Assembly: GCA_046299555.1 (NCBI GenBank) | Contig: JBKBHS010000004.1 | Location: 52,056 to 116,055, forward strand | Length of the DNA stretch: 64,000 bases | Direction of reading: 5' to 3' | Source: Bacteroidia bacterium | GTDB taxonomy: Bacteria > Bacteroidota > Bacteroidia > JACCXN01 | In this document: in pieces, positions 2,645 to 63,121 of the stretch | How positions within the stretch are numbered: position 1 is the stretch's first letter | How the letters are laid out: every line of letters begins with the position of its first letter | The notes under the pieces: model-generated | The model's input: only the letters and a program-made list of their open reading frames with translations | Databases searched by the model: none | Told to the model about the DNA's origin: nothing | Translations under genes and position numbers: made by a program

Positions 2645-4681
2645 ATGTTAAAACTCATGAGGGTATCTAAACTCACTTTAATTTTTGTAGCTTTAATAGC
2701 TCTACCACTACAAATTTTAGCTCAAAAAAACTTTGCAAAAGATGCAGACATGGCTTTTGCAGGTGAAAATTATTTTACAGCCATTGAGCTATATAAAAAA
2801 GCATACGCAAAAGAAAAAAGCAAAGCTAAAAAGGCTGAAATTCTATTCAAAATCGGGGAATGTTACAGATACACCCTTGATCACAAGCAAGCTGAAACCT
2901 GGTATAAAAAAGCTATTAAAGCAAAATATGCCGACCCAATTGCAACCCTTTACATTGCAGATGCTTTAAAATTGCAAGGTCGCTACGAAGAAGCCATTGT
3001 TGAATATAATAATTATAAAAATCTTGTACCCGGTGATAAAAGAGGAGAAGATGGTGTTAAGTCATGCGAAATGGCTAAAGAATGGGTAAAAGAACCAACC
3101 CGATATGAAGTTGCACCCGAAACTCAATTAAACTCTAAACAATTTGATTTCAGTCCAACCTATGCAGATAAAAAATACAATACTTTGTATTTTACTTCAT
3201 CCAGAGAAGGCTCAACCGGTAAAACCGTAGATGGTAGAATTGGCGAAAACTTTTCGGATATATACGAATCAAAACGCGATAAAAACGGAAAATGGAGCAC
3301 TCCGGCAATTTTAGCAGGTGATGTAAATACTCCGGCTAACGAAGGTGCTTCAGCCGTAAATAAAAAAGGCAACACCATGTATTTTACCCGTTGTGAATAT
3401 GGAAAAAATAAAGTATTTGGCTGTGCTATCTATCAAGCTACCAAACAAGGTAATGCATGGACAAACGTTACACTTTTAGATTTAGGTCCTGATACAGCTA
3501 AAATTGGTCATCCCGCCATTAGTGATGATGAATCGATGTTGATATTTTCATCCGATATGCAAGGAGGCATGGGAGGCAAAGATTTATGGATGATTACCTA
3601 TGATAAAAAATCTAAAACATGGAGCAAACCTAAAAATTTAGGTTCGCCAATTAATACCGAAGGCGATGAAATGTTCCCTTTTATTCATAAAGACGGAACT
3701 TTATATTTTGCTTCAAATGGTCATTTAGGAATGGGAGGATTGGATATATTCCGTGCTGAAAAAACCGGTGAAGGAACATGGGCAAATGTAGCTAATATGC
3801 GTTACCCGATAAACTCACCTGCAGATGACTACGGAATTATTTTTGAAGGTGAAAAAGAAAGAGGTTTTTTTACCTCAAATAGAGAAGGCAGCATGGGAGG
3901 CGATGATATCTGGAGATTTAACTTACCTCCATTATTATTTGTATTACAAGGCGTAATTACCGATGTAGATACTAAAAAGCCAATACCTGATGCAACCATT
4001 AAATTAATTGGTTCTGACGGCTCAGTTGCAGAAGTTAAATCGGATGCAACAGGGTTTTACAAATTTGCTGAAAAAGGAAACGAACGTTATTTAAATCCAA
4101 ATACATCTTATTCAATCACCGTATCAGCTAAAGATTACTTGAATGGTAAAGGAAAAGAAACTACTGTAGGCTTAAAAGAATCAACCACCTTTGTAAAAGA
4201 TTTTGCATTACAAACTACCAAGAAAAAAGAAATCAGATTCCCTGAAGTATTGTACGACTTGGGTAAATACACCTTACGTCCTGAATCAGAAGACTCTTTA
4301 ATGTTCTTATATCAAACATTAATAGATAACCCAACCATAGTTATTGAATTAAGCGCTCATACCGACTCAAGAGGTTCAGAAAAATCAAATCAGATACTTT
4401 CGGAAAATCGTGCAAAATCGTGCGTTGATTTCTTAATCTCTAAAGGAATTGACCCTGAAAGACTTGTGCCTAAAGGATATGGAGAAACTCGTCTTTTAGT
4501 TACCGATGCTGAAATTGCTAAACTTAAAACAGTTGAAGAAAAAGAAGCTGCGCATCAGAAAAATCGTAGAACCGTATTTTCGGTAATTCGTTCTGATTAT
4601 GTGCCTAAAGGTGGATTACCTGTTGAACCTACACCAACAGCTCCTAAAAAGACTGAAGAAGAAGAAGATTCTGAAGAATAA
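2645..4681 (+). CDS. OmpA-family peptidoglycan-binding protein, PorE-like architecture (TPR, PD40/WD40-like propeller, carboxypeptidase-regulatory-like domain, OmpA C-terminal)
   Basis: Signal peptide, N-terminal TPRs, PD40-like repeats (LYFASNGHLGMGGLDIF), IELSAHTDSRGS, NQILSENRA, NRRTVF. Confidence 0.9.
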   Translation: MLKLMRVSKLTLIFVALIALPLQILAQKNFAKDADMAFAGENYFTAIELYKKAYAKEKSKAKKAEILFKIGECYRYTLDHKQAETWYKKAIKAKYADPIATLYIADALKLQGRYEEAIVEYNNYKNLVPGDKRGEDGVKSCEMAKEWVKEPTRYEVAPETQLNSKQFDFSPTYADKKYNTLYFTSSREGSTGKTVDGRIGENFSDIYESKRDKNGKWSTPAILAGDVNTPANEGASAVNKKGNTMYFTRCEYGKNKVFGCAIYQATKQGNAWTNVTLLDLGPDTAKIGHPAISDDESMLIFSSDMQGGMGGKDLWMITYDKKSKTWSKPKNLGSPINTEGDEMFPFIHKDGTLYFASNGHLGMGGLDIFRAEKTGEGTWANVANMRYPINSPADDYGIIFEGEKERGFFTSNREGSMGGDDIWRFNLPPLLFVLQGVITDVDTKKPIPDATIKLIGSDGSVAEVKSDATGFYKFAEKGNERYLNPNTSYSITVSAKDYLNGKGKETTVGLKESTTFVKDFALQTTKKKEIRFPEVLYDLGKYTLRPESEDSLMFLYQTLIDNPTIVIELSAHTDSRGSEKSNQILSENRAKSCVDFLISKGIDPERLVPKGYGETRLLVTDAEIAKLKTVEEKEAAHQKNRRTVFSVIRSDYVPKGGLPVEPTPTAPKKTEEEEDSEE

Positions 4682-50925: not shown

Positions 50926-53900
50926 ATGAAATATATGTTTCGAATAAAAATCATTCTGATAATGCTTTTGCTCGGAGCAAATACCTTATTGGCTCAACGA
51001 CAAATTGCACAGGCAGAATATTTTATTGATACCGATCCTGGACCTGGAAATGGAACTCCCGTATTGGCAGTGGATGGCAATTTAGATAATGCCATTGAAT
51101 CCTTGTTTAGAAATGGAATCTCTGCAGGTTCTGTTGGTTTGCATACATTTAATGTTCGTGTAAAAGACAATTTGAATAACTGGGGACCTGTATTTAGAAC
51201 TGTTTTTTATTCATCTTCACCATTAACTACACGAAATATAAATGTATCACAAGCAGAATTATTTTTTGATAACGATCCCGGACAAGGTAATGGTACGCCC
51301 TTAATTGCATTTGATGGTAATTTTAACGATGCCATAGAAAGCATTAGCGGATCAATTTCTTCATTACCATCTAGCGGATTGCATGTATTACATATTCGTG
51401 TTAAAGATCCTCAAAATAATTGGGGGCCAAGCTTTAAAACGATTGTAAATATTACTTCTCCACTTGCTTTACGACAAATTAGAGTTAATGCAGCAGAATT
51501 GTTTTTTGATACCGATCCGGGACAAGGCAATGGCGTAGCTTTATTAGCTTTTGATGGCAACTTTAATGATGCTTTAGAAACTATTTCAGGAAGTATCAGT
51601 GTTTTGCCTTCAAGCGGGTTACATTTATTAAATGTAAGAGTACAAGATGCAAATGGTAACTGGGGGCCGGTATTTAAAACCATTGTGAATGTTACCAATC
51701 CATTATCACTAAGACAAATTAAAATTACAGAAGGTGAATTCTTTTTTGATATTGATCCGGGGCAAGGGCAAGGTTTTCCATTATTAGCATTTGATGGCAA
51801 TTTTAATGATGCCATTGAAAGCATGAATGCCAATTTTTCATTTTTACCCGATACCGGATTACATGTACTTAATGTACGCAGTAAAGATGCAAATGGTAAC
51901 TGGAGTCCAACCTTTAAAACAGTTTTACGTGTTTTACCTTGTGTAAACCAACCAACTGTAACTATAACACCAAATACTACACAATTAATTTGTCCCGGTG
52001 ATACGGTGAGTTTTACTGCTCAGGCAGGATTTACTTCTTATACTTGGTTTAGAGGCGGTACTGTTGTTGGAAACGGACAAAATTATGTGGCTGATACGGT
52101 TGGTTTTTATCGTGTTTATGCTGTAGATGCAAACGGATGTGGAGTTTTCTCTGACTTTACACAAGTAAATATGAATTTTTACAATGCCAATATTACAGCA
52201 TCCGGCCCTACCACATTTTGTCAGGGAGGTAGTGTGGTATTAACTGCCGGTTCAGGTAATACTTCCTATCAATGGAATACGGGAGCAACTACGCAAAGCA
52301 TTACAGTAGCATCGTCAGGAACATATATTGTAAATGTTTACAATGGAACCTGTATGGGTACTGATACTATTGAAGTAACTGTAAATCCTAATCCAAGTAC
52401 TCCTATTATTACCACTTCAGGTTCAACTTCAATTTGTCCGGGCGATTCTGTATCATTAACTTGTTCTACTTCTGCCAATGCCTACGCATGGAGTACCAAT
52501 GAATACACACAAAGTATTACTGTAAGCAATAGTGGAAATTATACTGTTACCATTACCGACAATAATAATTGTCAATCATCTTCCAGTATAAACGTTACTG
52601 TATATCCTAATCCGATTTCAAGTATAAATAGCAGCATTACAATATGCGAAGGAGATACAGCGCAAATGTCGGTAAGTGGTGGAGTAAGTTATGCTTGGAC
52701 TCCGGCAGTTGGATTAAGTAATCCATCAATTGCCAATCCATTTGTTTATCCAATTATATCAACACAATATACTGTAAATGTAGTTGGTTTAGGCGGATGT
52801 ACAGATTCAGCAACAGTAAACGTTTTAGTTAATCCAAAACCAACAGTTGCTGCATCGGCAAATAATACTGTTTTATGCGAAGGTAATTCACTTAACCTAT
52901 TTGCATTGCCAAATGGAGCAAGTTCTTATGCATGGAGTGGTCCGGCAGGATTTACTTCTGTAAATCAGAATCCAACTATTTCAAGCTTAACAACTGCAAA
53001 TACAGGTATTTATTCAGTAACTGCTTATAATAGTGCCGGATGTTTTGATACAGATACTTTAAACATAACAGTAAATCCGGGACCAATTGCATTTGCTTCT
53101 GCCAATAATATCAATCTTTGCGAAGGTGATACCTTGCAATTAAATTCATTACCCAATGGAATGGTTTCGTATAGTTGGGTTGGGCCTAATGGATTTAGCG
53201 ATAATCAGCAAAATACTCAAATAATAGGTGTTAATGGTACTAACCAAGGCACTTATACTGTAACTGTAAGCAATGGATTATGTAATTCTTCAGCACAAGT
53301 AAGTATTAATGTAAGCAGTGTTCCGGTTATAACGGCTAGTGCCAATAATACCAATTTATGTGAAGGAAGTGTATTGAATTTATTTGCAAGTATTGGAGCA
53401 TCAACTTATTCATGGAGTGGTCCTAATTTATTTACTTCTTCCTTACAAAATCCACAGATTACCAATGTTACAACATTGAATTCAGGAGATTATATTGTAA
53501 CCGGATATAATTCTTTAGGATGTTATTCTTCAGATACAATCACTGTTTCAATAATACCCGGTATTAATGCTGCTATTACCGGAAATACCGTGGTATGTGA
53601 AGAAGAAACCATTAGTTTAAATGGTTTACCTAATGGAATGCAAAGCTATAACTGGAGTGGACCAAATGGTTTTAATGCTAATACACAAAATATTAGTATT
53701 AATAATGCTCAAGCTGTTAATGCAGGAACATATACTTTAACAGTTAATAATGGAACTTGTAATTCAGTTACTAGCTATCAGATAATCGTAAAACCATCGC
53801 CTGATGTAACAGTAAATCAGTTTGGAGCGGTATTAAATGCCTTACAAGATTCGGCAAATTATCAGTGGATAAGTTGTTCTAATGCATTTGCACCTGTTAT

Positions 53901-54252
53901 TGGTGCTACTGCACAAACATTCACCGCATTTGAAAATGGTGATTATGCGGTAATAGTGATTTATAATGGTTGTGCTGATACCTCTGCATGTTTTAATGTA
54001 AATGGTTTAGGAATAGAAGAATCAAATAAAGAAAATACTTGGAGTATTTATCCAAATCCAAACAGAGGGCATTTTACTATCGAGGCACAAGCAGGAATGC
54101 AGTTTGAATTGATGGATTATACCGGTAAAATTATCCGCAGCTATCAAGTATGGCAAGATAGAATTAATATTCAAGAAGAATTATCAAGTGGTTTGTATTT
54201 AATAAGAAATACAGAAAGTGGCTCAGTTCATAAGCTTGTAATACAGAATTAA
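50926..54252 (+). CDS. T9SS type A cargo: four 80-aa D.DPG.G.G repeats, Ig-like/PKD-like stalk, CTD
   Basis: 240-bp period at 51028, 51268, 51508, 51748; YSWSGP repeats; SIYPNP...GLYLIR...KLVIQN. Confidence 0.85.
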   Translation: MKYMFRIKIILIMLLLGANTLLAQRQIAQAEYFIDTDPGPGNGTPVLAVDGNLDNAIESLFRNGISAGSVGLHTFNVRVKDNLNNWGPVFRTVFYSSSPLTTRNINVSQAELFFDNDPGQGNGTPLIAFDGNFNDAIESISGSISSLPSSGLHVLHIRVKDPQNNWGPSFKTIVNITSPLALRQIRVNAAELFFDTDPGQGNGVALLAFDGNFNDALETISGSISVLPSSGLHLLNVRVQDANGNWGPVFKTIVNVTNPLSLRQIKITEGEFFFDIDPGQGQGFPLLAFDGNFNDAIESMNANFSFLPDTGLHVLNVRSKDANGNWSPTFKTVLRVLPCVNQPTVTITPNTTQLICPGDTVSFTAQAGFTSYTWFRGGTVVGNGQNYVADTVGFYRVYAVDANGCGVFSDFTQVNMNFYNANITASGPTTFCQGGSVVLTAGSGNTSYQWNTGATTQSITVASSGTYIVNVYNGTCMGTDTIEVTVNPNPSTPIITTSGSTSICPGDSVSLTCSTSANAYAWSTNEYTQSITVSNSGNYTVTITDNNNCQSSSSINVTVYPNPISSINSSITICEGDTAQMSVSGGVSYAWTPAVGLSNPSIANPFVYPIISTQYTVNVVGLGGCTDSATVNVLVNPKPTVAASANNTVLCEGNSLNLFALPNGASSYAWSGPAGFTSVNQNPTISSLTTANTGIYSVTAYNSAGCFDTDTLNITVNPGPIAFASANNINLCEGDTLQLNSLPNGMVSYSWVGPNGFSDNQQNTQIIGVNGTNQGTYTVTVSNGLCNSSAQVSINVSSVPVITASANNTNLCEGSVLNLFASIGASTYSWSGPNLFTSSLQNPQITNVTTLNSGDYIVTGYNSLGCYSSDTITVSIIPGINAAITGNTVVCEEETISLNGLPNGMQSYNWSGPNGFNANTQNISINNAQAVNAGTYTLTVNNGTCNSVTSYQIIVKPSPDVTVNQFGAVLNALQDSANYQWISCSNAFAPVIGATAQTFTAFENGDYAVIVIYNGCADTSACFNVNGLGIEESNKENTWSIYPNPNRGHFTIEAQAGMQFELMDYTGKIIRSYQVWQDRINIQEELSSGLYLIRNTESGSVHKLVIQN

Positions 54253-54336
54253 GAATAAAATTTTTAGGCGGGTTTTAGTACAAAACCCGCCCCCCGCAAC
54301 GGGGTTTTGTTGCAAACCGCGGTACCCGAAAAGCGG
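54007..54336 (+). repeat. Duplicated CTD plus intergenic block (second copy starts at 56020)
   Basis: Offset 2013; 9 substitutions across the ~246-nt coding part; identity continues through the stop into the structured element. Confidence 0.9.
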
Positions 54337-54353
54337 AAAAGTGAGTAGGGACG
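54267..54353 (+). repeat. Structured intergenic element, copy 1
   Basis: GGCGGGTTTT-agtac-AAAACCCGCC, CCCCC, GCAAC-ggggtttt-GTTGC, CCGC-ggtacccgaaaa-GCGG, GAGTAGGG. Confidence 0.85.
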
Positions 54354-54369
54354 AGTAAAACAAACAATT

Positions 54370-56265
54370 ATGAAAAAAATCTACCTGTTCATCGTATTAT
54401 GTGTTTCATTGTTGCTAACAAACTTAATTTATGCGCAAACAGTTACTACCATTGCCTCAACTACTTGTAATCCTCATGGATTAGCTGTTGATAACATTGG
54501 AAATGTATATTTTTCTGAAACAAGCAGTTGTTATCAAATAAATAAATTAGATACAGCGGGAAATATTATCACTTTTGCTACTTTAACAAACGATCCGGCA
54601 CAGTTAGTTTATCGCAATGGTTACATTTATGTTGCGTATCATTGGAGTGCCGAAAAAAAGATAGTACGAATCCCTCTTTCTGGTGGTGCTCCACAAGACT
54701 ATGTAACAAACATTGGAGATACATATGGTGCATGGGGTATGGTATTTGATGGAGATACATTGTTTTTTGTTGAATATGCTAATCAAAGAATATACAAAGT
54801 ATTACCCGGAGGAGGAGCTGTTGGTGGGCCTAATGTAATACCTATTCAGAATACAATATTCGGAATAGCAGGAAGTAGTAAAAGAACATGTGGGTTAAAT
54901 TTTTTACCAAATGGAAATTTTATAGTAAGCACCTTATATGATGGAGGTAAAATTTATGAAGTAAATCGTCAAACCGGCAGTGTTTCATTATTATTAACAG
55001 CTCCTGATAATATTATAATAGATGTTACCAAAATTGGTAATTTGTATTATTTAACGGGTTACAATACACATAAAATTTATACCTTGGATCCAATATCCTT
55101 AAATGTAACAACATATGCTGGTACAGGTTCTGCTGGCAATACAGATGGACCTTTATTAATTTCTACATTTACACAACCATATTTTATTAGTGAGGATATT
55201 TACGGAAATATTTATGTTACCTGTAGTGGCTCCAATAAAGTTCGTAAAATTTGGGATTGTCATCTCATCAATTCAAGTTTTACTTATAATAATGCATGCA
55301 TAGGAGGGAACGCATTAGTGCAGGTAAATAGTAGCGGAGGTAATTTTAGCCATTCGTATTCGTGGACAGGACCAAACTCTTTTACTGCCAGCGGTTCAAC
55401 CATTAACTTCCCATTAAACTCAAATACACTTGGTACCTATACCGTTCAAATAACCGATTTGTTTGGATGTACCAAAACAGATTCTATTCAAATTACAGAT
55501 CCTACAACATATGGCAGCATTACGGCAACTACTTGTGGACAGTATACTTCACCCAGTGGAAATTATGTATGGACAAGCAGCGGAACCTACGCGGATACTA
55601 TTGCAAATGCAACAGGATGTGATAGTGTGATTTCAGTAAGTTTAACTATAACACCTAATAGTACAAATACAATTACGGTTAGCTCTTGCAATAATTATAC
55701 TTCTCCCAGTGGAAATTATGTATGGACAAATAGTGGAACTTATGTAGATACAATTCCGAATAGTGCCGGATGTGATAGCATCATTACCATTCAACTTACC
55801 ATAAACACTATTACTAATCTGACAACCACGGTGAGTGGCAACACAATTACAGCGAACAATACGAATGCAAGCTATCAGTGGTTAGATTGTGGTAATAATT
55901 ATGCCGTAATATCAGGTGCAACCAGTCAAGTATTTACACCAGCTGTAAGTGGGAGTTATGCGGTTCAGCTTACCGAAAATGGTTGTGTGGATACAAGTGC
56001 ATGTGTAAGTATAACAATTTTAGGAATAGAAGAATCAAACAAAGAAAATACTTGGAGTATTTATCCCAATCCAAACAGAGGGCATTTTACTATCGAGGCA
56101 CAAGCAGGAATGCAGTTTGAATTGATGGATTATACCGGTAAAATTATCCTCAGCTATCAGGCATGGCAAGATAGAATTCATATTCAAGAAGAATTATCAA
56201 GTGGTTTGTATTTGATAAGAAATACAGAAAGTGGTTCAGTTCAAAAGCTTGTAATACAGAATTAA
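54370..56265 (+). CDS. T9SS type A cargo with NHL/SMP-30-like propeller and Cys-containing stalk repeats
   Basis: PHGLAVDNIGNVYF, YAGTGSAGNTDG, TSPSGNYVWT.SGTY.DTI x2, CTD nearly identical to that of 50926. Confidence 0.85.
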   Translation: MKKIYLFIVLCVSLLLTNLIYAQTVTTIASTTCNPHGLAVDNIGNVYFSETSSCYQINKLDTAGNIITFATLTNDPAQLVYRNGYIYVAYHWSAEKKIVRIPLSGGAPQDYVTNIGDTYGAWGMVFDGDTLFFVEYANQRIYKVLPGGGAVGGPNVIPIQNTIFGIAGSSKRTCGLNFLPNGNFIVSTLYDGGKIYEVNRQTGSVSLLLTAPDNIIIDVTKIGNLYYLTGYNTHKIYTLDPISLNVTTYAGTGSAGNTDGPLLISTFTQPYFISEDIYGNIYVTCSGSNKVRKIWDCHLINSSFTYNNACIGGNALVQVNSSGGNFSHSYSWTGPNSFTASGSTINFPLNSNTLGTYTVQITDLFGCTKTDSIQITDPTTYGSITATTCGQYTSPSGNYVWTSSGTYADTIANATGCDSVISVSLTITPNSTNTITVSSCNNYTSPSGNYVWTNSGTYVDTIPNSAGCDSIITIQLTINTITNLTTTVSGNTITANNTNASYQWLDCGNNYAVISGATSQVFTPAVSGSYAVQLTENGCVDTSACVSITILGIEESNKENTWSIYPNPNRGHFTIEAQAGMQFELMDYTGKIILSYQAWQDRIHIQEELSSGLYLIRNTESGSVQKLVIQN

Positions 56266-56279
56266 GAATAAAATTTTTA

Positions 56280-56365
56280 GGCGGGTTTTAGTACAAAACC
56301 CGCCCCCTGCAACGGGGGTTTGTTGCAAGCGCGGTACCCGAAAAGCGTAATAGAGAGTAGGGGCG
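56280..56365 (+). repeat. Structured intergenic element, copy 2
   Basis: Same hairpin; TGCAAC-gggggttt-GTTGCA; GCGC-ggtacccgaaaa-GCGT; GAGTAGGGGCG. Confidence 0.85.
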
Positions 56366-56382
56366 TAACTATCAATTTAAAA

Positions 56383-58179
56383 ATGAAAAAGGTTTTTTAT
56401 AGCATTTGTTTTATTGCAATTTCATTTTCAATTTCTGCTCAAAACTATGAAGTTGAAACTACTAAATTTAATTTATCAGATTATAAAATTGAAAAAGGTT
56501 GGAAATCATATGGTTCTTTTGTCAATAATAATGGTGATTATGTTATAAAGTTTGGCTCTGCCTATTGTGATGTTGATTTGAGTACATCTTATACTTATGA
56601 TACCAAGACTATTAAAGCAAATTTTAAAGGAGTAGCTTATAAATTTAAAGAAGTTGTTTTTGGTCAAAATTTACAATTTAAAGAACTTATTTCAAAAGAT
56701 TTTCCTACAACTGTTGATGCTTTGCAGTATCAAAAAGATCTTTTTGGTAAAACATTCGAGCCGATTAATGCGAATGTTTTTGAAAAAATTGCAAAAAATA
56801 ATCCTTATGCAATTATAGGTAAAAGTATCACCGAAGGTGTAGCTTACATGCCTAAATTAACAAGTGATTATATTGGGCAATTTATTGTATTTCCGGTTAC
56901 AAAAGCTGCCATTGGTAAACCTAATAATAAAATTTCAACGGCATTTATAATGTCAACTGTAAAAGGCAACTTAGAAGTAAAAGGATATTACGAAAAAGCA
57001 AGTTGCAGCGAAGTGCCTATTTATTTACCAATGGAACAAATAGACACAAAAGAAAATAAGAATGAATTGTGGATATTAGCAAATAATGTGGTATATCCAG
57101 GCGGTGGAATAATTGGATATTTTACAAAAGATGTAGTGCCTGATGATGGCAAATTACATGTTATTTACAGACAATTTGATGAAAACTTGAATGAATTAAA
57201 TAGGTTGGATTTACCATTTGATTATACTCCGGTTTTTCAAAATTTTACTTATAAAAACAACGATCAGTATGATATGATATTAATTGCACAATCTTCGAAT
57301 AAGGGTGCTCCACATCCTGCATTTAGCAAAATGCATAAAGAGAAAAATCCAAATCAAGCTGAGTTGATATATATAGATGGTAAAACATTAAAAGTAAAGC
57401 ATAGAATTCCATTTGAACTTCCATATTCTAAATGGTATAAAATTACAATGCTTACAAATAATGATAATGAAGTATATTTTATGGGTAAATGTGCAACAGA
57501 TAACAAAACAGCTATGAATCATATTGATTGGGGGGATAAGGGCTTAGATAATTTTCAGATTTTAAAATTTAAAAATGGGAAAATTGACTGGATAAAAGGT
57601 GTAGATGCCAAGGGTGATGCCGCTAAAATAAAATTGGTTACGGGTGAAAAAATAAAAGGCAAATCTGAGAAAAAAATTATTATTAGAACCATAAACCCTG
57701 AAAATGCAAATGAAGTTGTTTTCTTAGATGATAAATTTTATATACAAGGACAGGTATTTAATGGTCAATCATATGTAGCAGAGTTTAATAGTAATACAGG
57801 CGATTTACTTAACTACTATGTAAAGCCTGAGTCAATTAAAGCAAAACAAAACCTTGTTTTTTCAAAGGATAAAAAAAGTATTTATTGGTTAACATATAAT
57901 TTTAAAAACTATAATAAATACGATAGTAAAACCGGTGTGCTTACAAGTGATAAAATTCCAGGTATGATTGCAGGTGAGTTATTTGTTTCTAAGTTAGGAG
58001 TAGGAACCGGCAATTTTACACCCTTTACACAATTGGGTAAAGAAGAGTGGCTTATTTCATACCATGAACCAGTTATTTTAGATGAATATACAGCTGATTC
58101 GTTTATATTATATGGCCGCACTATTGCTAAAAAAGCTAAGAATAGCGAATTGGTTTTAGTGAAAGTAAAAAAGAACTAA
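56383..58179 (+). CDS. Exported hypothetical protein, no T9SS CTD
   Basis: MKKVFYSICFIAISFSISAQ signal peptide from the ATG at 56383; the track's 56320 start reads through the repeat element. Confidence 0.75.
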   Translation: MKKVFYSICFIAISFSISAQNYEVETTKFNLSDYKIEKGWKSYGSFVNNNGDYVIKFGSAYCDVDLSTSYTYDTKTIKANFKGVAYKFKEVVFGQNLQFKELISKDFPTTVDALQYQKDLFGKTFEPINANVFEKIAKNNPYAIIGKSITEGVAYMPKLTSDYIGQFIVFPVTKAAIGKPNNKISTAFIMSTVKGNLEVKGYYEKASCSEVPIYLPMEQIDTKENKNELWILANNVVYPGGGIIGYFTKDVVPDDGKLHVIYRQFDENLNELNRLDLPFDYTPVFQNFTYKNNDQYDMILIAQSSNKGAPHPAFSKMHKEKNPNQAELIYIDGKTLKVKHRIPFELPYSKWYKITMLTNNDNEVYFMGKCATDNKTAMNHIDWGDKGLDNFQILKFKNGKIDWIKGVDAKGDAAKIKLVTGEKIKGKSEKKIIIRTINPENANEVVFLDDKFYIQGQVFNGQSYVAEFNSNTGDLLNYYVKPESIKAKQNLVFSKDKKSIYWLTYNFKNYNKYDSKTGVLTSDKIPGMIAGELFVSKLGVGTGNFTPFTQLGKEEWLISYHEPVILDEYTADSFILYGRTIAKKAKNSELVLVKVKKN

Positions 58180-58190
58180 AATAATTTTTT

Positions 58191-58280
58191 GGCGGGTTTT
58201 GACTACAACTAAAACCCGCCCCCTCCAACGGGGTCTTGTTGCAAACCGCGGTACCTGAAAAGCGGCAAAAAGAGTAGGGA
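58191..58280 (+). repeat. Structured intergenic element, copy 3
   Basis: GGCGGGTTTT-gactacaact-AAAACCCGCC; CAAC-ggggtctt-GTTG; CCGC-ggtacctgaaaa-GCGG; GAGTAGGG. Confidence 0.85.
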
Positions 58281-58300
58281 TAAATTTAAAATCAAAGAAG

Positions 58301-59965
58301 ATGAAAATTACAAATTTTACGCTAAAATTCTATTTCATTATTCTGTATTTTTTCATGGTGAATAGTTTGTTTTCTCAAGCTCCTGCATGGAACTGGGTTA
58401 GTACAGGTGGTGGTGTAGGTATTTCTAATTATGCTACCTCTTGTGTTAATGATAATGCTGGTAATACTTTTTTATCTGGATTGCATAATGATACCATGAT
58501 GATTCAAAAGTTTGATCCCAATGGTAATTTAGTTTGGATGACTAAACCCGTTATTAAAGGCTCAGTTCCTCAAAGCAGGATATATGACATAGCATTGGAT
58601 TCTTTTGGTAATGTGTATGTGGGCGGAACCTTTCATGATACTTGTTATTTCGGATCAATCATGTTAATATCAGATACGGTTAATAGCAATCCATCTTCTG
58701 CAGGCTTCTTGGCAAAACTTGATCCTAATGGAAATTTTATCTGGGCTATTAATGCTATACAATCAAGTTCTTGTCAATCTGTTGCTGTTGATCAAAATAA
58801 TGATATTATCATTGGCGGAACTGCAGGTATTTATTCCAATTTTGTTATTTCCGGACAAAGCGTTTCTATCACTAGTCCTAAACAGCATTTATTTATGGCA
58901 AAAATAAACTCATCAGGAGTAGGGATATGGGCTAAGGTATTTGAATCTGCACCTTCAAACCCAACTTTAGGGAAATCTGCTGTTCATGATATTTGTACAG
59001 ATAATTCAGGAAATGTTTACTTCACAGGGTATTTTTCATATTCTGTTAATTTTGGAGGCGTTGCCCTAACTGCAAGCGGTTCAGAAATTTATTTGGCTAA
59101 ATTAGATGCAAACGGCAACACAGTTTGGGTAAAACAAAGCAATTCCAGTTTATCCTACAAAGGTGCGTGTGGTCAAGGGGTAGGTGTTGATGCATCCGGA
59201 GATGTATATTTATTAGGATGGATAGAAGAAAATACCAATTTTGGTAGCTTCACTGCAACATATGGTGGGACACCATCTTCCCAAAATACCATTGTACTCG
59301 TTAAATACAACTCTTCAGGAACCGAGCAATGGGCAAAAGCCTTTGGTAAAGTAAAATCCGATAGTTATTACGGACGCACAATCGGATATTCATTAACAAG
59401 TTCAGGCGACAGTTACATAGGATCTTCTGCTGGAAATTTTGTTTCAGGCGGGATAGATTTTGGGGATGGTATTTCACAAAGCTTTCCAGTAAATGGTTTT
59501 ATAATAAATTATGTAGTGAAAGTGAACAATTCCGGGGTAACCCAATGGGCTAAATTTAACAATTCCAACACTACTGATAAGTTCTATAGTTCATCCATTG
59601 ATGCAGCAGAAAATGTATATGTTTGCGGTTACTGGATTACTGGTACGGGATTCGATAATTTAATAGCACCTACAGGTCCGTATGGAATTTTATTGGCTAA
59701 ACTTGGTTCTAATCCAATTAACTCAATAACAGATTATATCAACAATTCTTCTGCCTTTTTGATTTACCCCAACCCAGCCACCAATCAAATTACCATTCAA
59801 AGCGAGCAAGCCGGAGTATTTGATTTGTTAGATATACAAGGCAGAGTGTTACAAAGCTTTACGGTGAACAATAGCCAAGAAACCATACCACTTAATTATT
59901 CAGCGGGCATGTATTTTATTCGCGAACAAAAAAGCGGTGTTGTGCAGAAAGTAATTATCGAGTAA
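58301..59965 (+). CDS. T9SS type A cargo with SBBP-like beta-propeller repeats
   Basis: Repeated D..GNVY..G and AKLD.NGN..W; LIYPNPA...GMYFIR...KVIIE. Confidence 0.85.
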   Translation: MKITNFTLKFYFIILYFFMVNSLFSQAPAWNWVSTGGGVGISNYATSCVNDNAGNTFLSGLHNDTMMIQKFDPNGNLVWMTKPVIKGSVPQSRIYDIALDSFGNVYVGGTFHDTCYFGSIMLISDTVNSNPSSAGFLAKLDPNGNFIWAINAIQSSSCQSVAVDQNNDIIIGGTAGIYSNFVISGQSVSITSPKQHLFMAKINSSGVGIWAKVFESAPSNPTLGKSAVHDICTDNSGNVYFTGYFSYSVNFGGVALTASGSEIYLAKLDANGNTVWVKQSNSSLSYKGACGQGVGVDASGDVYLLGWIEENTNFGSFTATYGGTPSSQNTIVLVKYNSSGTEQWAKAFGKVKSDSYYGRTIGYSLTSSGDSYIGSSAGNFVSGGIDFGDGISQSFPVNGFIINYVVKVNNSGVTQWAKFNNSNTTDKFYSSSIDAAENVYVCGYWITGTGFDNLIAPTGPYGILLAKLGSNPINSITDYINNSSAFLIYPNPATNQITIQSEQAGVFDLLDIQGRVLQSFTVNNSQETIPLNYSAGMYFIREQKSGVVQKVIIE

Positions 59966-59978
59966 AATTTTTAAAATC

Positions 59979-60014
59979 AAAAAACAAGGGGCGAATATTC
60001 GCCCCTTGTTTTTT
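59979..60014. terminator. Perfect 36-bp palindrome, terminator
   Basis: AAAAAACAAGGGGCGAAT-ATTCGCCCCTTGTTTTTT. Confidence 0.85.
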
Positions 60015-60067
60015 GTGAATTTAATAAAATGTTATAAAATTGATAGGAAATTAAAAATTTTAATTCT

Positions 60068-62992
60068 ATGCAAGGATTTATGAAATCAATTCAAAAGGTT
60101 TTGGTTTTTGTAATTTCATTCATGTTCATTAGCATAAAAACATTACATGCTATAGAATTTTCTAATGCTCAGCAAGCCTTATCTAAATTAGATAAAAATT
60201 ACTTCATCGAAAACAAGGGCCAATGGCACAGCGATGTGTTGTATCTGGCAAGATTAGGCGGTTTGGATGCGTGGATTACCAAGTACGGTGTAAATTATAC
60301 CTTTTACAAATTAGAAGAAATCCCTAACGAATCCATAGCAAAAAAAGGACGATTTCCGGATAAAATTAGGCATAAGGATTATAATGTAATAGGGCATAGA
60401 GTATTGATGAAATTGCAAAACTATAATTCTAATTCTGTTAGTGAGGGGAAACAAAAGCAAGAAGGCTATTATAATTATTTCATAGGTAATGATGATAGTA
60501 AACATGCTTCATTTGTACGACTTTACAATGAAGTATTAATTAAGAACATATATAACGGTATTGATATACGTTATTATTTTGATAAAGGATTTTTGCGCTT
60601 TGATTATATAGTGCATCCTGGAGCAGAGCCAAATCAAATTGTGTTTAGTTTAAAAGGAAGTGAAAAGACATATGTAAATGAAAAAGGTAATTTAGTTTTT
60701 AAAACTCGCTTTGGAGAAACAAGTTTAACAGAATTAAACGTATATCAACAAGATAAAAGAAATACAATATCTTCAAGTTTTAAGGCTAAATCAAAAGATT
60801 TATGGACTTTTCAAATTAATTCCTATGATCGAACAAAAGATTTAATAATTGATCCATTGATTTATTCTACGTATATTGGAGGAAGCAATTTAGATGAAGC
60901 TAATGGAATAGAAGTTGATGGTAATGGTAATGCATATATAACTGGGGATACGTATTCAACTGAATATGATATTTTACCAGGAGCATTTCAGTATACAATT
61001 GCAGGATGGGTTGATGTTTTTATTACAAAGTTAAATACTTTAGGAAATGCTTTAATATATTCTACTTATATTGGAGGAAATGGTGATGATATTGGATACG
61101 ATGTTAAGGTGGATGGGAATGGAAATACCTTTATAACAGGGATAACATCTTCAACTAATTATGATATTACTACAGGAGCGTATCAGACAACAAATGATGG
61201 AGGGGATTATGATGTTTTTGTTACAAAAATAAATTCTAATGGAAGCTCTTTATTGTATTCTACCTACTTAGGCGGAAGTGATTTAGATGTTGGCCTGAAT
61301 ATTGCAATAGATGCAACTGGTAGTGCTTATGTTACAGGTTATACATATTCAAATAATTTTGATATTACTGCCGGGGCTTTTCAAACATCCATGGCAGGCT
61401 TTTCAGATGCATTTGTAACTAAATTAAATTCTACAGGAAACGCATTGGTTTATTCTACATATATAGGTGGAAGTGATTATGAATTTAGTTATGGGTTGAT
61501 TATTGATAATACAGGAAATACTTATATTGTTGGCCAAACATTATCAACTGATTTTGATATTACCTTGGGGGCTTTTCAAACAATTTACGGAGGAAATTGT
61601 GATGTTTTTGTAACAAAATTAAATTCTAATGGAAACTCGCTTGAATATTCAACTTATATAGGAGGAAGCGATGAAGATTTTGGATATTCAATAGCTTTAG
61701 ATAATAATGGCAATACTTATATTACCGGCTATACTTGGTCAACAGATTTTGATATAACAACGGGTGCCTTTCAAAATTCTAATCAAGGAAGCTGCGATGC
61801 TTTTATAACCAAACTAAATTTTAATGGAAGCTCTTTAGAATATTCTACATACTTAGGCGGAGGAGATTGGGATTTTGGTAAAGCTATAACCATTGATGGG
61901 AATGGAAATATTTATATTACCGGTTGGACACAATCAATTAATTTTGATACTACCCCTGGAGCTTTTCAGACAATATATGGAGGAGGAACTTATGACGTAT
62001 TTGTTACAAAGTTTAATCCCTCTGGAAGTGGATTAATTTATTCTACTTATTTAGGAGGTAATGATATTGAATTTGTTTCAGATATTGATATAGATGCTAA
62101 TGGGAATGCATATTTAACTGGATATACATCCTCAACAAATTTTGATATAACATCAGGGGCATTTCAGACAAACTTTGAAGGATTTTATGATGTATTTGTT
62201 ACTAAAATTTGTTTTGAATCAATTGCATTAATTTCTGCTAATGCTACAACAAATCAATCTGTATGTATAAATGTAGCTATTTCAAATATTGTCTACATAA
62301 TAACAGGAGCTACAGGAGTTGTTATTACAGGATTGCCATCAGGAGTTTCAGGAAACTTTAATGGGAGTAATCTAACTATTAGTGGAACACCAAACCAAAC
62401 TGGAATTTTCAACTATACGGTTACTCTCACGGGGGGATGTGGTAGTGTAATAACTAATGGTACCATTACTGTTAATCCAAATATTTCTATTACACTAAGC
62501 TCCTCAGCAGGCACAGACAACCAAACTCTGTGTATCAATACTCCTATTACCAATATCACCTACAGCGCCTCCGGAGCAACAGGAGCAAGCGTATCCGGCT
62601 TACCAAGTGGTGTAAATAGTAATTTTTCAGGTGGAGTGGTAACTATTAGCGGTACACCTACGCTAATTGGAACATTCAACTACACGATTACACCAATGGG
62701 GGGATGTGGGAATGTTAGTGCAATTGGTAGCATTACAGTAAACGATTGTTTAGGTATAGATCAAATGGATAATCAAACTTCATGGAGTATATACCCCAAC
62801 CCTGCTAAACATCAATTTACGATAAAAACCGAAAACGGAGGACTATTTGAATTGTTGGATATACAGGGTAGAGTGTTACAAAGTTTTTCGGTAAACAACA
62901 ACCAAGAAACCATATCACTTAATTATTCTCCGGGCATGTATTTTATTCGCGAACAAAAAAGCGGTTTTGTGCAGAAAGTAATTATCGAGTAA
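60068..62992 (+). CDS. T9SS type A cargo: N-terminal FIENKGQW domain, SBBP repeats, two Ig-like modules, CTD
   Basis: FIENKGQW, IIDPLIYSTYIGG, seven YSTY(I/L)GG motifs, TISGTP x2, CTD similar to that of 58301. Confidence 0.87.
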   Translation: MQGFMKSIQKVLVFVISFMFISIKTLHAIEFSNAQQALSKLDKNYFIENKGQWHSDVLYLARLGGLDAWITKYGVNYTFYKLEEIPNESIAKKGRFPDKIRHKDYNVIGHRVLMKLQNYNSNSVSEGKQKQEGYYNYFIGNDDSKHASFVRLYNEVLIKNIYNGIDIRYYFDKGFLRFDYIVHPGAEPNQIVFSLKGSEKTYVNEKGNLVFKTRFGETSLTELNVYQQDKRNTISSSFKAKSKDLWTFQINSYDRTKDLIIDPLIYSTYIGGSNLDEANGIEVDGNGNAYITGDTYSTEYDILPGAFQYTIAGWVDVFITKLNTLGNALIYSTYIGGNGDDIGYDVKVDGNGNTFITGITSSTNYDITTGAYQTTNDGGDYDVFVTKINSNGSSLLYSTYLGGSDLDVGLNIAIDATGSAYVTGYTYSNNFDITAGAFQTSMAGFSDAFVTKLNSTGNALVYSTYIGGSDYEFSYGLIIDNTGNTYIVGQTLSTDFDITLGAFQTIYGGNCDVFVTKLNSNGNSLEYSTYIGGSDEDFGYSIALDNNGNTYITGYTWSTDFDITTGAFQNSNQGSCDAFITKLNFNGSSLEYSTYLGGGDWDFGKAITIDGNGNIYITGWTQSINFDTTPGAFQTIYGGGTYDVFVTKFNPSGSGLIYSTYLGGNDIEFVSDIDIDANGNAYLTGYTSSTNFDITSGAFQTNFEGFYDVFVTKICFESIALISANATTNQSVCINVAISNIVYIITGATGVVITGLPSGVSGNFNGSNLTISGTPNQTGIFNYTVTLTGGCGSVITNGTITVNPNISITLSSSAGTDNQTLCINTPITNITYSASGATGASVSGLPSGVNSNFSGGVVTISGTPTLIGTFNYTITPMGGCGNVSAIGSITVNDCLGIDQMDNQTSWSIYPNPAKHQFTIKTENGGLFELLDIQGRVLQSFSVNNNQETISLNYSPGMYFIREQKSGFVQKVIIE

Positions 62993-63005
62993 AATTTTTA
63001 AAAAC

Positions 63006-63041
63006 AAAAAACAAGGGGCGAATTTTCGCCCCATTGTTTTT
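63006..63041. terminator. Variant copy of the 59979 terminator
   Basis: AAAAAACAAGGGGCGAA-tt-TTCGCCCCATTGTTTTT. Confidence 0.8.
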
Positions 63042-63121
63042 AAGTAAATAATATACAGCATTTGCAGTATTGAAATTTATAATTGATAAAATCAATTTTG
63101 TGCATCTAAAACATAATTTAT

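Follow-up and report, generated by a model that had tools for sequence, protein, structure and literature searches.

The 64,000-nucleotide (nt) stretch analyzed here, called the window below (positions 52,056 to 116,055 of the forward strand of contig JBKBHS010000004.1, assembly GCA_046299555.1, from a Bacteroidia bacterium), carries three copies of an element of about 87 nt in the gaps between successive genes for secreted proteins. The last 36 nt of each copy, the core, almost certainly belongs to the DUF805b RNA family (Rfam RF02914), and an alignment of 150 copies points to a hairpin whose loop pairs with the conserved 3′ tail. We hold with moderate confidence that the core is a cis-acting mRNA leader element for the cistron that follows it and most probably works in the initiation of translation; the mechanism is inferred. 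For the window, the result is mainly corrective: the family was already catalogued, its fold is a loop-tail pseudoknot and not a three-way junction or a set of kissing loops, and the additional hairpins are local.

All three copies are on the + strand (54267-54351, 56280-56363, and 58191-58280, counted from the first letter of the window), and, as first described from the sequence, each fills the gap from a stop codon (54250-52, 56263-65, and 58177-79) to the next ATG (54370, 56383, and 58301). All the sequence features noted in the original prediction were found at the positions given. The pattern of hairpin 1, GGCGGGTTTT-N(3-14)-AAAACCCGCC, occurs exactly three times in the window versus 0.00 expected; its 10-bp stem is invariant, its loop varies (AGTAC in copies 1 and 2, GACTACAACT in copy 3), and there is no U-tract on either strand. 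The stem of hairpin 2 is GCAAC/GTTGC in copy 1, TGCAAC/GTTGCA in copy 2, and CAAC/GTTG in copy 3. The third stem (P1) changes from CCGC/GCGG to GCGC/GCGU in copy 2, a double change from C-G to G.U that keeps the pair. A 17-mer within the core, GCGGTACCYGAAAAGCG, is also present three times, versus 0.02 expected. The parts of the copies and the genes that follow them, of which two encode cargo proteins of the type IX secretion system (T9SS), are as follows.

54267-54291, + strand: copy 1, hairpin 1, GGCGGGUUUU-AGUAC-AAAACCCGCC, without a U-tract; the C-run follows, to 54295
54296-54313, + strand: copy 1, hairpin 2, GCAAC-GGGGUUUU-GUUGC, lineage specific
54316-54351, + strand: copy 1, DUF805b core, 37.9 bits in cmscan; P1 54317-20/54333-36, loop 54321-32
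54325-27 with 54348-50, + strand: copy 1, core pseudoknot, predicted pairing of CCC with GGG; the tail GAGUAGG is at 54343-49
54352-54369, + strand: copy 1, A/U-rich spacer, reaching the ATG of the T9SS cargo gene at 54370-56265
56280-56304, + strand: copy 2, hairpin 1, identical to hairpin 1 of copy 1
56308-56327, + strand: copy 2, hairpin 2, UGCAAC-GGGGGUUU-GUUGCA
56328-56363, + strand: copy 2, DUF805b core, 35.7 bits in cmscan; P1 GCGC 56329-32/GCGU 56345-48, predicted pseudoknot CCC 56337-39/GGG 56360-62
56383-58179, + strand: gene after copy 2, no Pfam family, signal-peptide-like N terminus
58191-58220, + strand: copy 3, hairpin 1, the shared 10-bp stem with a 10-nt loop, GACUACAACU
58226-58241, + strand: copy 3, hairpin 2, CAAC-GGGGUCUU-GUUG, the outer pair lost (C.C)
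58245-58280, + strand: copy 3, DUF805b core, 43.5 bits in cmscan; P1 CCGC 58246-49/GCGG 58262-65
58254-56 with 58277-79, + strand: copy 3, core pseudoknot, predicted pairing of CCU with GGG, with one U.G wobble
58301-59965, + strand: gene after copy 3, a T9SS cargo gene

Copies 1 and 2 are not independent because both end one duplication of about 390 nt that is 93% identical (53965-54351 versus 55978-56363, family D3) and that also includes the upstream gene's C-terminal T9SS sorting domain. Copy 3 is independent. It is preceded by an unrelated gene, and its likeness to copy 1 starts about 10 nt before hairpin 1 and stops at GUAGGGA.

The assignment of the core to RF02914 was made with cmscan and Rfam 15. 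All three matches span model positions 1 to 35 of 35 and lie above the gathering score of 35.6 bits, which copy 2 clears by 0.1 bit. RF02914 is listed as a cis-regulatory candidate and is in clan CL00115 with the DUF805 motif. Except for a tRNA, no further Rfam family was found by cmscan in the element or in the window. The original prediction could match the element to no riboswitch and named a clear Rfam hit as grounds for giving up its claim; the core, at or above the gathering score, provides such a hit. The DUF805b RNA motif reportedly came from the comparative screen of Weinberg et al. in 2017. A literature search found no paper on the function of DUF805b, and the main text of PMC5737381 has no mention of it. 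The core is thus a catalogued RNA, to which the window copies add new members with a local 5′ extension.

The core matches the family model end to end. Its layout is a 4-bp hairpin, a 12-nt loop (GGnANCCGAAAA), a linker, and an invariant tail, AGAGUAGG-N′. A 4-bp hairpin closing a 12-nt loop of the form GGnAnCnGAAAA is present in each copy (CCGC/GCGG, GCGC/GCGU, and CCGC/GCGG), and after a short A-rich linker the conserved tail (A)GAGUAGG appears as GAGUAGG in 3 of 3 copies, preceded by U, A, and A, respectively. A downstream gene on the same strand is a further likeness, and the T9SS sorting domains fit a host in the Bacteroidota. The window copies differ from the motif as catalogued in three respects: the genes downstream encode T9SS cargo or other secreted proteins and not DUF805 membrane proteins, the loop of this lineage has GGUACC where the consensus has GGAAgC, and two extra hairpins precede the core.

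To define the breadth of the family, we searched 185,579 species genomes for GGWANCNGAAAAG-N7-11-GAGTAGG, a pattern that captures only family members with exact GAAAAG and GAGTAGG blocks. There were at least 120 matches; among the matches listed, which do not extend to the window's own genome, almost all were in Bacteroidota, and they span the Bacteroidales, Chitinophagales, Flavobacteriales, Cytophagales, and Sphingobacteriales. The same pattern was found on 16 viral contigs of IMG/VR, and a metagenome scan gave 13 loci. Among 17 other Bacteroidota loci, all that bear the motif were assigned to RF02914 by cmscan.

The evidence for the fold of the core comes from an alignment (A2) of 150 copies of the motif, drawn from Bacteroidota genomes, metagenomes, and phage contigs that number more than 100 in all. 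The search pattern had left the stem and two key positions free. In 128 copies, the hairpin pairs next to the loop could form in 98, 97, 93, and 67% of the sequences and were of many types, and in the whole set both-sided changes occurred at three of the four pairs of the stem. In addition, the fifth base of the loop covaries with the base directly after GAGUAGG, and the neighboring CC and GG are invariant or form a U.G wobble. Together these positions make a 3-bp helix between loop and tail, 5′-NCC-3′ with 5′-GGN′-3′. With the complete structure, ..((((....[[[.....)))).............]]]..., 90% of the cells in the alignment were paired versus 69.5% in shuffled alignments, and the covariation score was 0.506, reached by 0 of 500 shuffles, versus 0.134. 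The signal collapsed when the partners were slid by one to three columns.

For the pseudoknot pair itself we used 140 copies, omitting 10 metagenome rows in which a second search pattern had fixed this pair. The pair was G-C in 46 copies, U-A in 33, A-U in 25, C-G in 13, G.U in 6, and U.G in 1. The mutual information of the two columns was 1.10 bits versus a maximum of 0.16 bit in 5,000 permutations, and no other column came close. The Rfam covariance model, as run, holds the hairpin only, without the loop-tail pseudoknot; the pseudoknot was derived here and was compared with the Rfam model alone. In the window, the corresponding pairings are CCC/GGG, CCC/GGG, and CCU/GGG, and from the alignment we conclude that the ACCC-type loop pairs with the distal GGG.

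This assignment bears on two pairings proposed from the window sequence. Because the partner of the loop is the GGG of the tail, that GGG is unavailable to the C-run; the pairing of the C-run with the distal AGGG is possible on paper, but across the 150 copies the tail GGG covaries with the core loop instead. Likewise, the proposed kissing of the GGGGU loop of hairpin 2 with the ACCC-type loop is possible on paper but gives way, since the same alignment assigns the latter's partner to the tail. Comparative data support neither pairing, since no other genome examined has the C-run or hairpin 2.

Thermodynamic folding supported hairpin 1 alone, the one robust helix and the only one that the minimum-free-energy fold predicted strongly. 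Z-scores ranged from −1.2 to −1.9 when the whole element was folded and lay at about 0 with the core. Support for the core therefore lies in the covariation of the aligned sequences, not in fold energy.

The 5′ half of the element is of another kind. Hairpin 1, the C-run, and hairpin 2 were not found in the 120 genome loci listed, in the 13 metagenome loci, or in the 16 viral loci, and among the three window copies neither hairpin 1 nor hairpin 2 has a compensatory stem change, while their loops differ. The proposal of a conserved structured RNA in an mRNA leader stands for the core, which has covariation and a family match, and falls for the multistem whole, whose first two hairpins occur in no other genome. 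We treat the first 50 nt as a lineage-specific intercistronic spacer that was duplicated locally, along with the core, in the run of codirectional secreted-protein genes; hairpin 1 may stabilize the 3′ end of the upstream cistron.

Family-wide, hairpins that end 0 or 1 nt from P1 were weakly enriched (26 and 23 versus about 15 and 12 in controls), and the fold energy of the 40 nt upstream equaled that of the controls; a general upstream hairpin was therefore rejected as a feature of the family. Hairpin 1 was rejected as an intrinsic terminator: CCCC and no U-tract follows its stem, and RNA contigs cross it in copies 2 and 3. Terminators with U-tracts do exist nearby, at about 59983-60014 and 63008-63034. 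In a search for other composite elements, DNA sequencing runs with a low share of matching words proved to hold the same strain at low depth.

Two side observations concern upstream hairpins in other sequences. In a hot-spring DNA run (X12), a loose end at window position 58245 has a DUF805b core after GCGCCCC and a hairpin, GCUUGGG-GGGAUGGUU-CCCAAGC (as DNA, GCTTGGG-GGGATGGTT-CCCAAGC). This is the layout of the window copies (a C-run, a hairpin with a G-rich loop, and the core) with other stem letters; the sequence was not retrieved again. Separately, Roseivirga and Flavobacteriaceae-type genomes carry a second recurrent hairpin, GTGGAGCAGnnnCCAC and then AAAAAACGAG, which precedes the DUF805b core by 25 to 50 nt. 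This hairpin may belong to an extended form of DUF805b or to a separate motif, and was seen at the following places.

L002, about 1380-1450, − strand: GTGGAGCAGnnnCCAC hairpin
L051, about 4060-4120, + strand: GTGGAGCAGnnnCCAC hairpin
L101, about 2250-2316 and about 3165-3231, + strand: GTGGAGCAGnnnCCAC hairpins
L104, about 740-800, − strand: GTGGAGCAGnnnCCAC hairpin

We examined the position of the motif relative to genes. The distance from the end of the motif (GAGUAGG) to the ATG had a median of 22 nt, an interquartile range of 20 to 25 nt, and a 10-to-90% range of 17 to 29 nt; in the window copies it is 20, 21, and 22 nt. Family-wide, the spacer was 51% A, 30% U, and 6% G. Because it is only about 20 nt long and A/U rich, there is no room in it for a terminator-type expression platform. 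The upstream side was less uniform. In 28 of 104 cases the motif lies less than 80 nt behind a codirectional long open frame; of 22 TAnnTTTG −7 boxes found within 150 nt, 16 lie 4 to 40 nt upstream of the motif, at a distance from it that is not fixed. At seven loci (L006, L013, L089, L090, L101, L110, and L149) the motif is repeated before successive genes.

The genes downstream are diverse. Among 96 downstream proteins, the Pfam families at the top were Por_Secre_tail (8), outer-membrane barrels (7), rhodopsins (3), and Trypsin_2 (3), followed at lower ranks by tail-collar (2), Bacteriocin_IIc (2), HU (2), and PixA (1). DUF805, the domain for which the RNA is named, was not among the 25 commonest Pfam families of these proteins, and no DUF805 gene follows the window copies, which precede two T9SS cargo proteins and one secreted protein without a Pfam family. 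N termini resembling signal peptides or transmembrane segments were found in 58% of the downstream proteins of at least 100 amino acids (aa) versus 31% of the other open reading frames (ORFs) at the same loci (Fisher P = 7e-5). Cys-rich peptides of 47 to 85 aa with a GG leader account for about 20 of 95 downstream ORFs, for example, the leader_Chryseo bacteriocin-like protein NF047798 (the loci include L010, L013, L029, L043, L045, L058, L060, L085, L094, L098, L120, and L133). On two IMG/VR contigs, L141 and L149, a conserved upstream block of about 95 nt is repeated with the core before successive small genes, and on a third viral contig, L138, the motif precedes a gene for an HU-like DNA-binding protein.

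Five metatranscriptome runs from sludge contain the region, as assembled contigs. Contigs run unbroken from the end of gene 3 (the gene after copy 1) through copy 2, gene 4, and copy 3 into gene 5 (56068-59933 in run X10; from 56278 in X5 and X9). In three runs, positions 60027-60065, between a U-tract terminator and the promoter of gene 6, are uncovered. This gap, with read-through elsewhere, indicates that the libraries behave as RNA and that the elements are transcribed; since contigs also cross hairpin 1 in copies 2 and 3, this stem does not terminate transcription efficiently. Mean depths, taken from four runs, were 26, 16, 56, and 40 for genes 1 and 2; 65, 44, 125, and 132 for gene 3; 42, 15 to 30, 68, and 57 for genes 4 and 5; and 253, 174, 307, and 532 for gene 6. 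The steps would fit weak internal promoters or segments of differing stability. Contig breaks at 54084, 54265, 56097, 56307, and 59933 are artifacts of the repeats. One further end deserves mention: in X10, the contig of gene 3 begins at 54356, 5 nt past the pseudoknot and 14 nt short of the ATG, where it is joined to an Illumina adapter. This position may be an RNA 5′ end, processed or primary; such an end was seen in one of the five runs, and adapters also occur inside genes (at 54931 and 48386).

The core is transcribed within the mRNA and ends about 20 nt short of the start codon; the spacer between them is rich in A and U and poor in G. In translation initiation, such a compact fold, which spans about −20 to −55, would be placed on the mRNA-exit and platform side of the 30S subunit, where it could dock the ribosome (for example, via bS1) or a regulator that gates the ribosome. 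A cis-acting element of translation initiation fits best because the distance to the AUG is fixed, the motif is independent of the 5′ end, each cistron has its own copy, and phages use it too. Bacteroidota hardly use Shine-Dalgarno pairing. A bolder version, which we put forward tentatively and consider improbable, is that DUF805b is a phylum-wide structured element that docks ribosomes without a Shine-Dalgarno sequence, a minimal bacterial counterpart of an internal ribosome entry site; in the window it would be intercistronic, and the pseudoknot of each T9SS cargo cistron would restart translation. The C-run is complementary to the tail GGG and the GGGG loop of hairpin 2 to the CCC of the core loop, and the lineage-specific additions, by competing for one pseudoknot strand each, could thereby gate the pseudoknot in read-through RNA. 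How start codons are chosen without Shine-Dalgarno pairing in Bacteroidota is only partly understood, and the DUF805b pseudoknot is a concrete and easily mutated candidate for a part in it. The core is possibly also a portable expression part for engineering these bacteria.

Several observations weigh against a role in initiation. The strand test, based on the asymmetry of G.U versus A.C pairs, was not decisive at 23 versus 18 (43 versus 18 before we dropped two pairs whose G was fixed by the search pattern). The unpaired bases of the core are heavily conserved (GGnA, GAAAA, and AGAGUA), which fits a pocket for a ligand or a protein as well as it fits ribosome docking. If 54356 were the main 5′ end of the mRNA, the mature message would lack the motif, which would favor processing. 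Finally, gene 6 (60068-62992), which encodes DUF7948, SBBP beta-propeller repeats, and a T9SS sorting domain, has a canonical promoter upstream, TTTG-N19-TAAAATTG, and no DUF805b motif, yet it has the highest RNA depth (174 to 532); thus, the motif is not needed for high RNA levels.

The near invariance of the unpaired nucleotides also bears on the possibility that the core is the aptamer of an orphan riboswitch, in which a small molecule, a nucleotide second messenger, or an ion would stabilize the NCC/GGN′ helix and so change expression. We consider this unlikely, if only slightly more so than the docking element just described. In its size and topology the core recalls the preQ1-I, SAM-II, and guanidine-III riboswitches: about 35 nt, in which a short hairpin and an A-rich linker are combined with a 3-bp helix joining loop and 3′ tail, just upstream of a coding region. 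The downstream genes, heterogeneous but biased toward the envelope and secretion, recall second-messenger regulons. However, the element has no sequence similarity to those three families and no Rfam match to them. Because its 3′ strand is some 20 nt away from the AUG, DUF805b cannot mask the ribosome-binding site; in the short spacer there is neither a terminator nor a conserved alternative pairing with the start region. The downstream genes have no metabolic theme, or any other, in common, and phages use the motif too.

Much the same doubt attaches to a trans-acting factor, an RNA-binding protein or a small RNA, for which the core would be the binding site and whose regulon would consist of exported proteins and bacteriocin-like peptides. 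The composition of the downstream genes speaks for it: the excess of export signals, the frequent GG-leader peptides, and the place of Por_Secre_tail and outer-membrane barrels at the top of the Pfam census. But HU, tail-collar, and PixA, which are cytoplasmic, and rhodopsins are also found downstream, no candidate factor was identified, and no linked gene was seen.

Processing is less probable again. Here the element would be an intercistronic module for cleavage and stability, cut within or just after it, with hairpin 1 guarding the 3′ end of the upstream message and the pseudoknot guarding the new 5′ end or marking the cut. Intercistronic stem-loops, such as the repetitive extragenic palindromic (REP) stabilizers of E. 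coli malEFG, set differential expression within operons. Like these, hairpin 1 is GC rich, directly follows the stop codon in a cotranscribed run, and has different RNA depths on its two sides; unlike them, it is known from three copies only, all fused to a DUF805b core, and has no REP consensus. Depth shifts at the elements despite unbroken contigs, the adapter-joined start at 54356, and the lack, on inspection, of a canonical −33/−7 promoter between hairpin 1 and the core are consistent with processing. Nevertheless, that start comes from a single run among five, with adapters inside genes as well, and contig depth is a poor measure of abundance. Moreover, a stabilizing hairpin needs no invariant loops, no pseudoknot, and no fixed distance to the AUG.

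A promoter at the DNA level is very unlikely. GGnAnC and GTAGG, 17 nt apart, could be read as the −35 and −10 elements of a sigma factor of the extracytoplasmic function (ECF) type, with a spacing like that of ECF promoters and with the possible RNA 5′ end at 54356, 6 nt after GTAGGG. A promoter explains neither the Watson-Crick covariation of loop and tail, with its four pair types, nor the covarying stem in what would be the spacer, and on these grounds the GGnAnC-N17-GTAGG candidate was rejected. In addition, RNA contigs cover the motif, its orientation toward the downstream ORF is constant, and in other genomes −7 boxes lie upstream of it. A canonical TTTG-N19-21-TAnnTTTG promoter inside the element was also rejected: inspection showed a weak TTTG/CTTG in the loop of hairpin 2 and no −33 box at the proper distance.

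The least likely explanation, which we dismiss for practical purposes, is that of a single-stranded DNA recombination site like attC, or a mobile repeat of the REP or miniature inverted-repeat transposable element type, building a cassette array: two unrelated passenger domains are indeed followed by duplicates (93% identical) of one module, made up of sorting domain, stop codon, and element, and hairpin 1 combines an invariant stem with a variable loop, but there are only three copies in the window, all in the orientation of the downstream gene and at a fixed distance from its ATG, RNA contigs join copies 2 and 3 to the genes on either side, the core belongs to an RNA family spread across the phylum, the composite was not found at the other loci listed, and no integrase was among the best 25 of 63 Pfam families of 36 other ORFs in the window. 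On attC itself the original prediction was right to see no fit: the R′ consensus GTTRRRY does not occur, and the sole heptamer that begins with GTT, GTTGCAA in hairpin 2, departs from it by a C in place of the purine at the fifth position.

Two further features of the window were observed. Neighboring T9SS cargo genes have 3′ ends that were duplicated together with the DNA downstream, while the passenger domains upstream are unrelated; a second such pair, 59762-60026 and 62789-63053, consists of a sorting domain and a U-tract terminator and is 85% identical. These duplications suggest recombination or gene conversion among the cargo genes. The segment 41368-42242 holds a tRNA (75.9 bits) and, after it, tandem repeats of 374 bp that are 99% identical (family D2).

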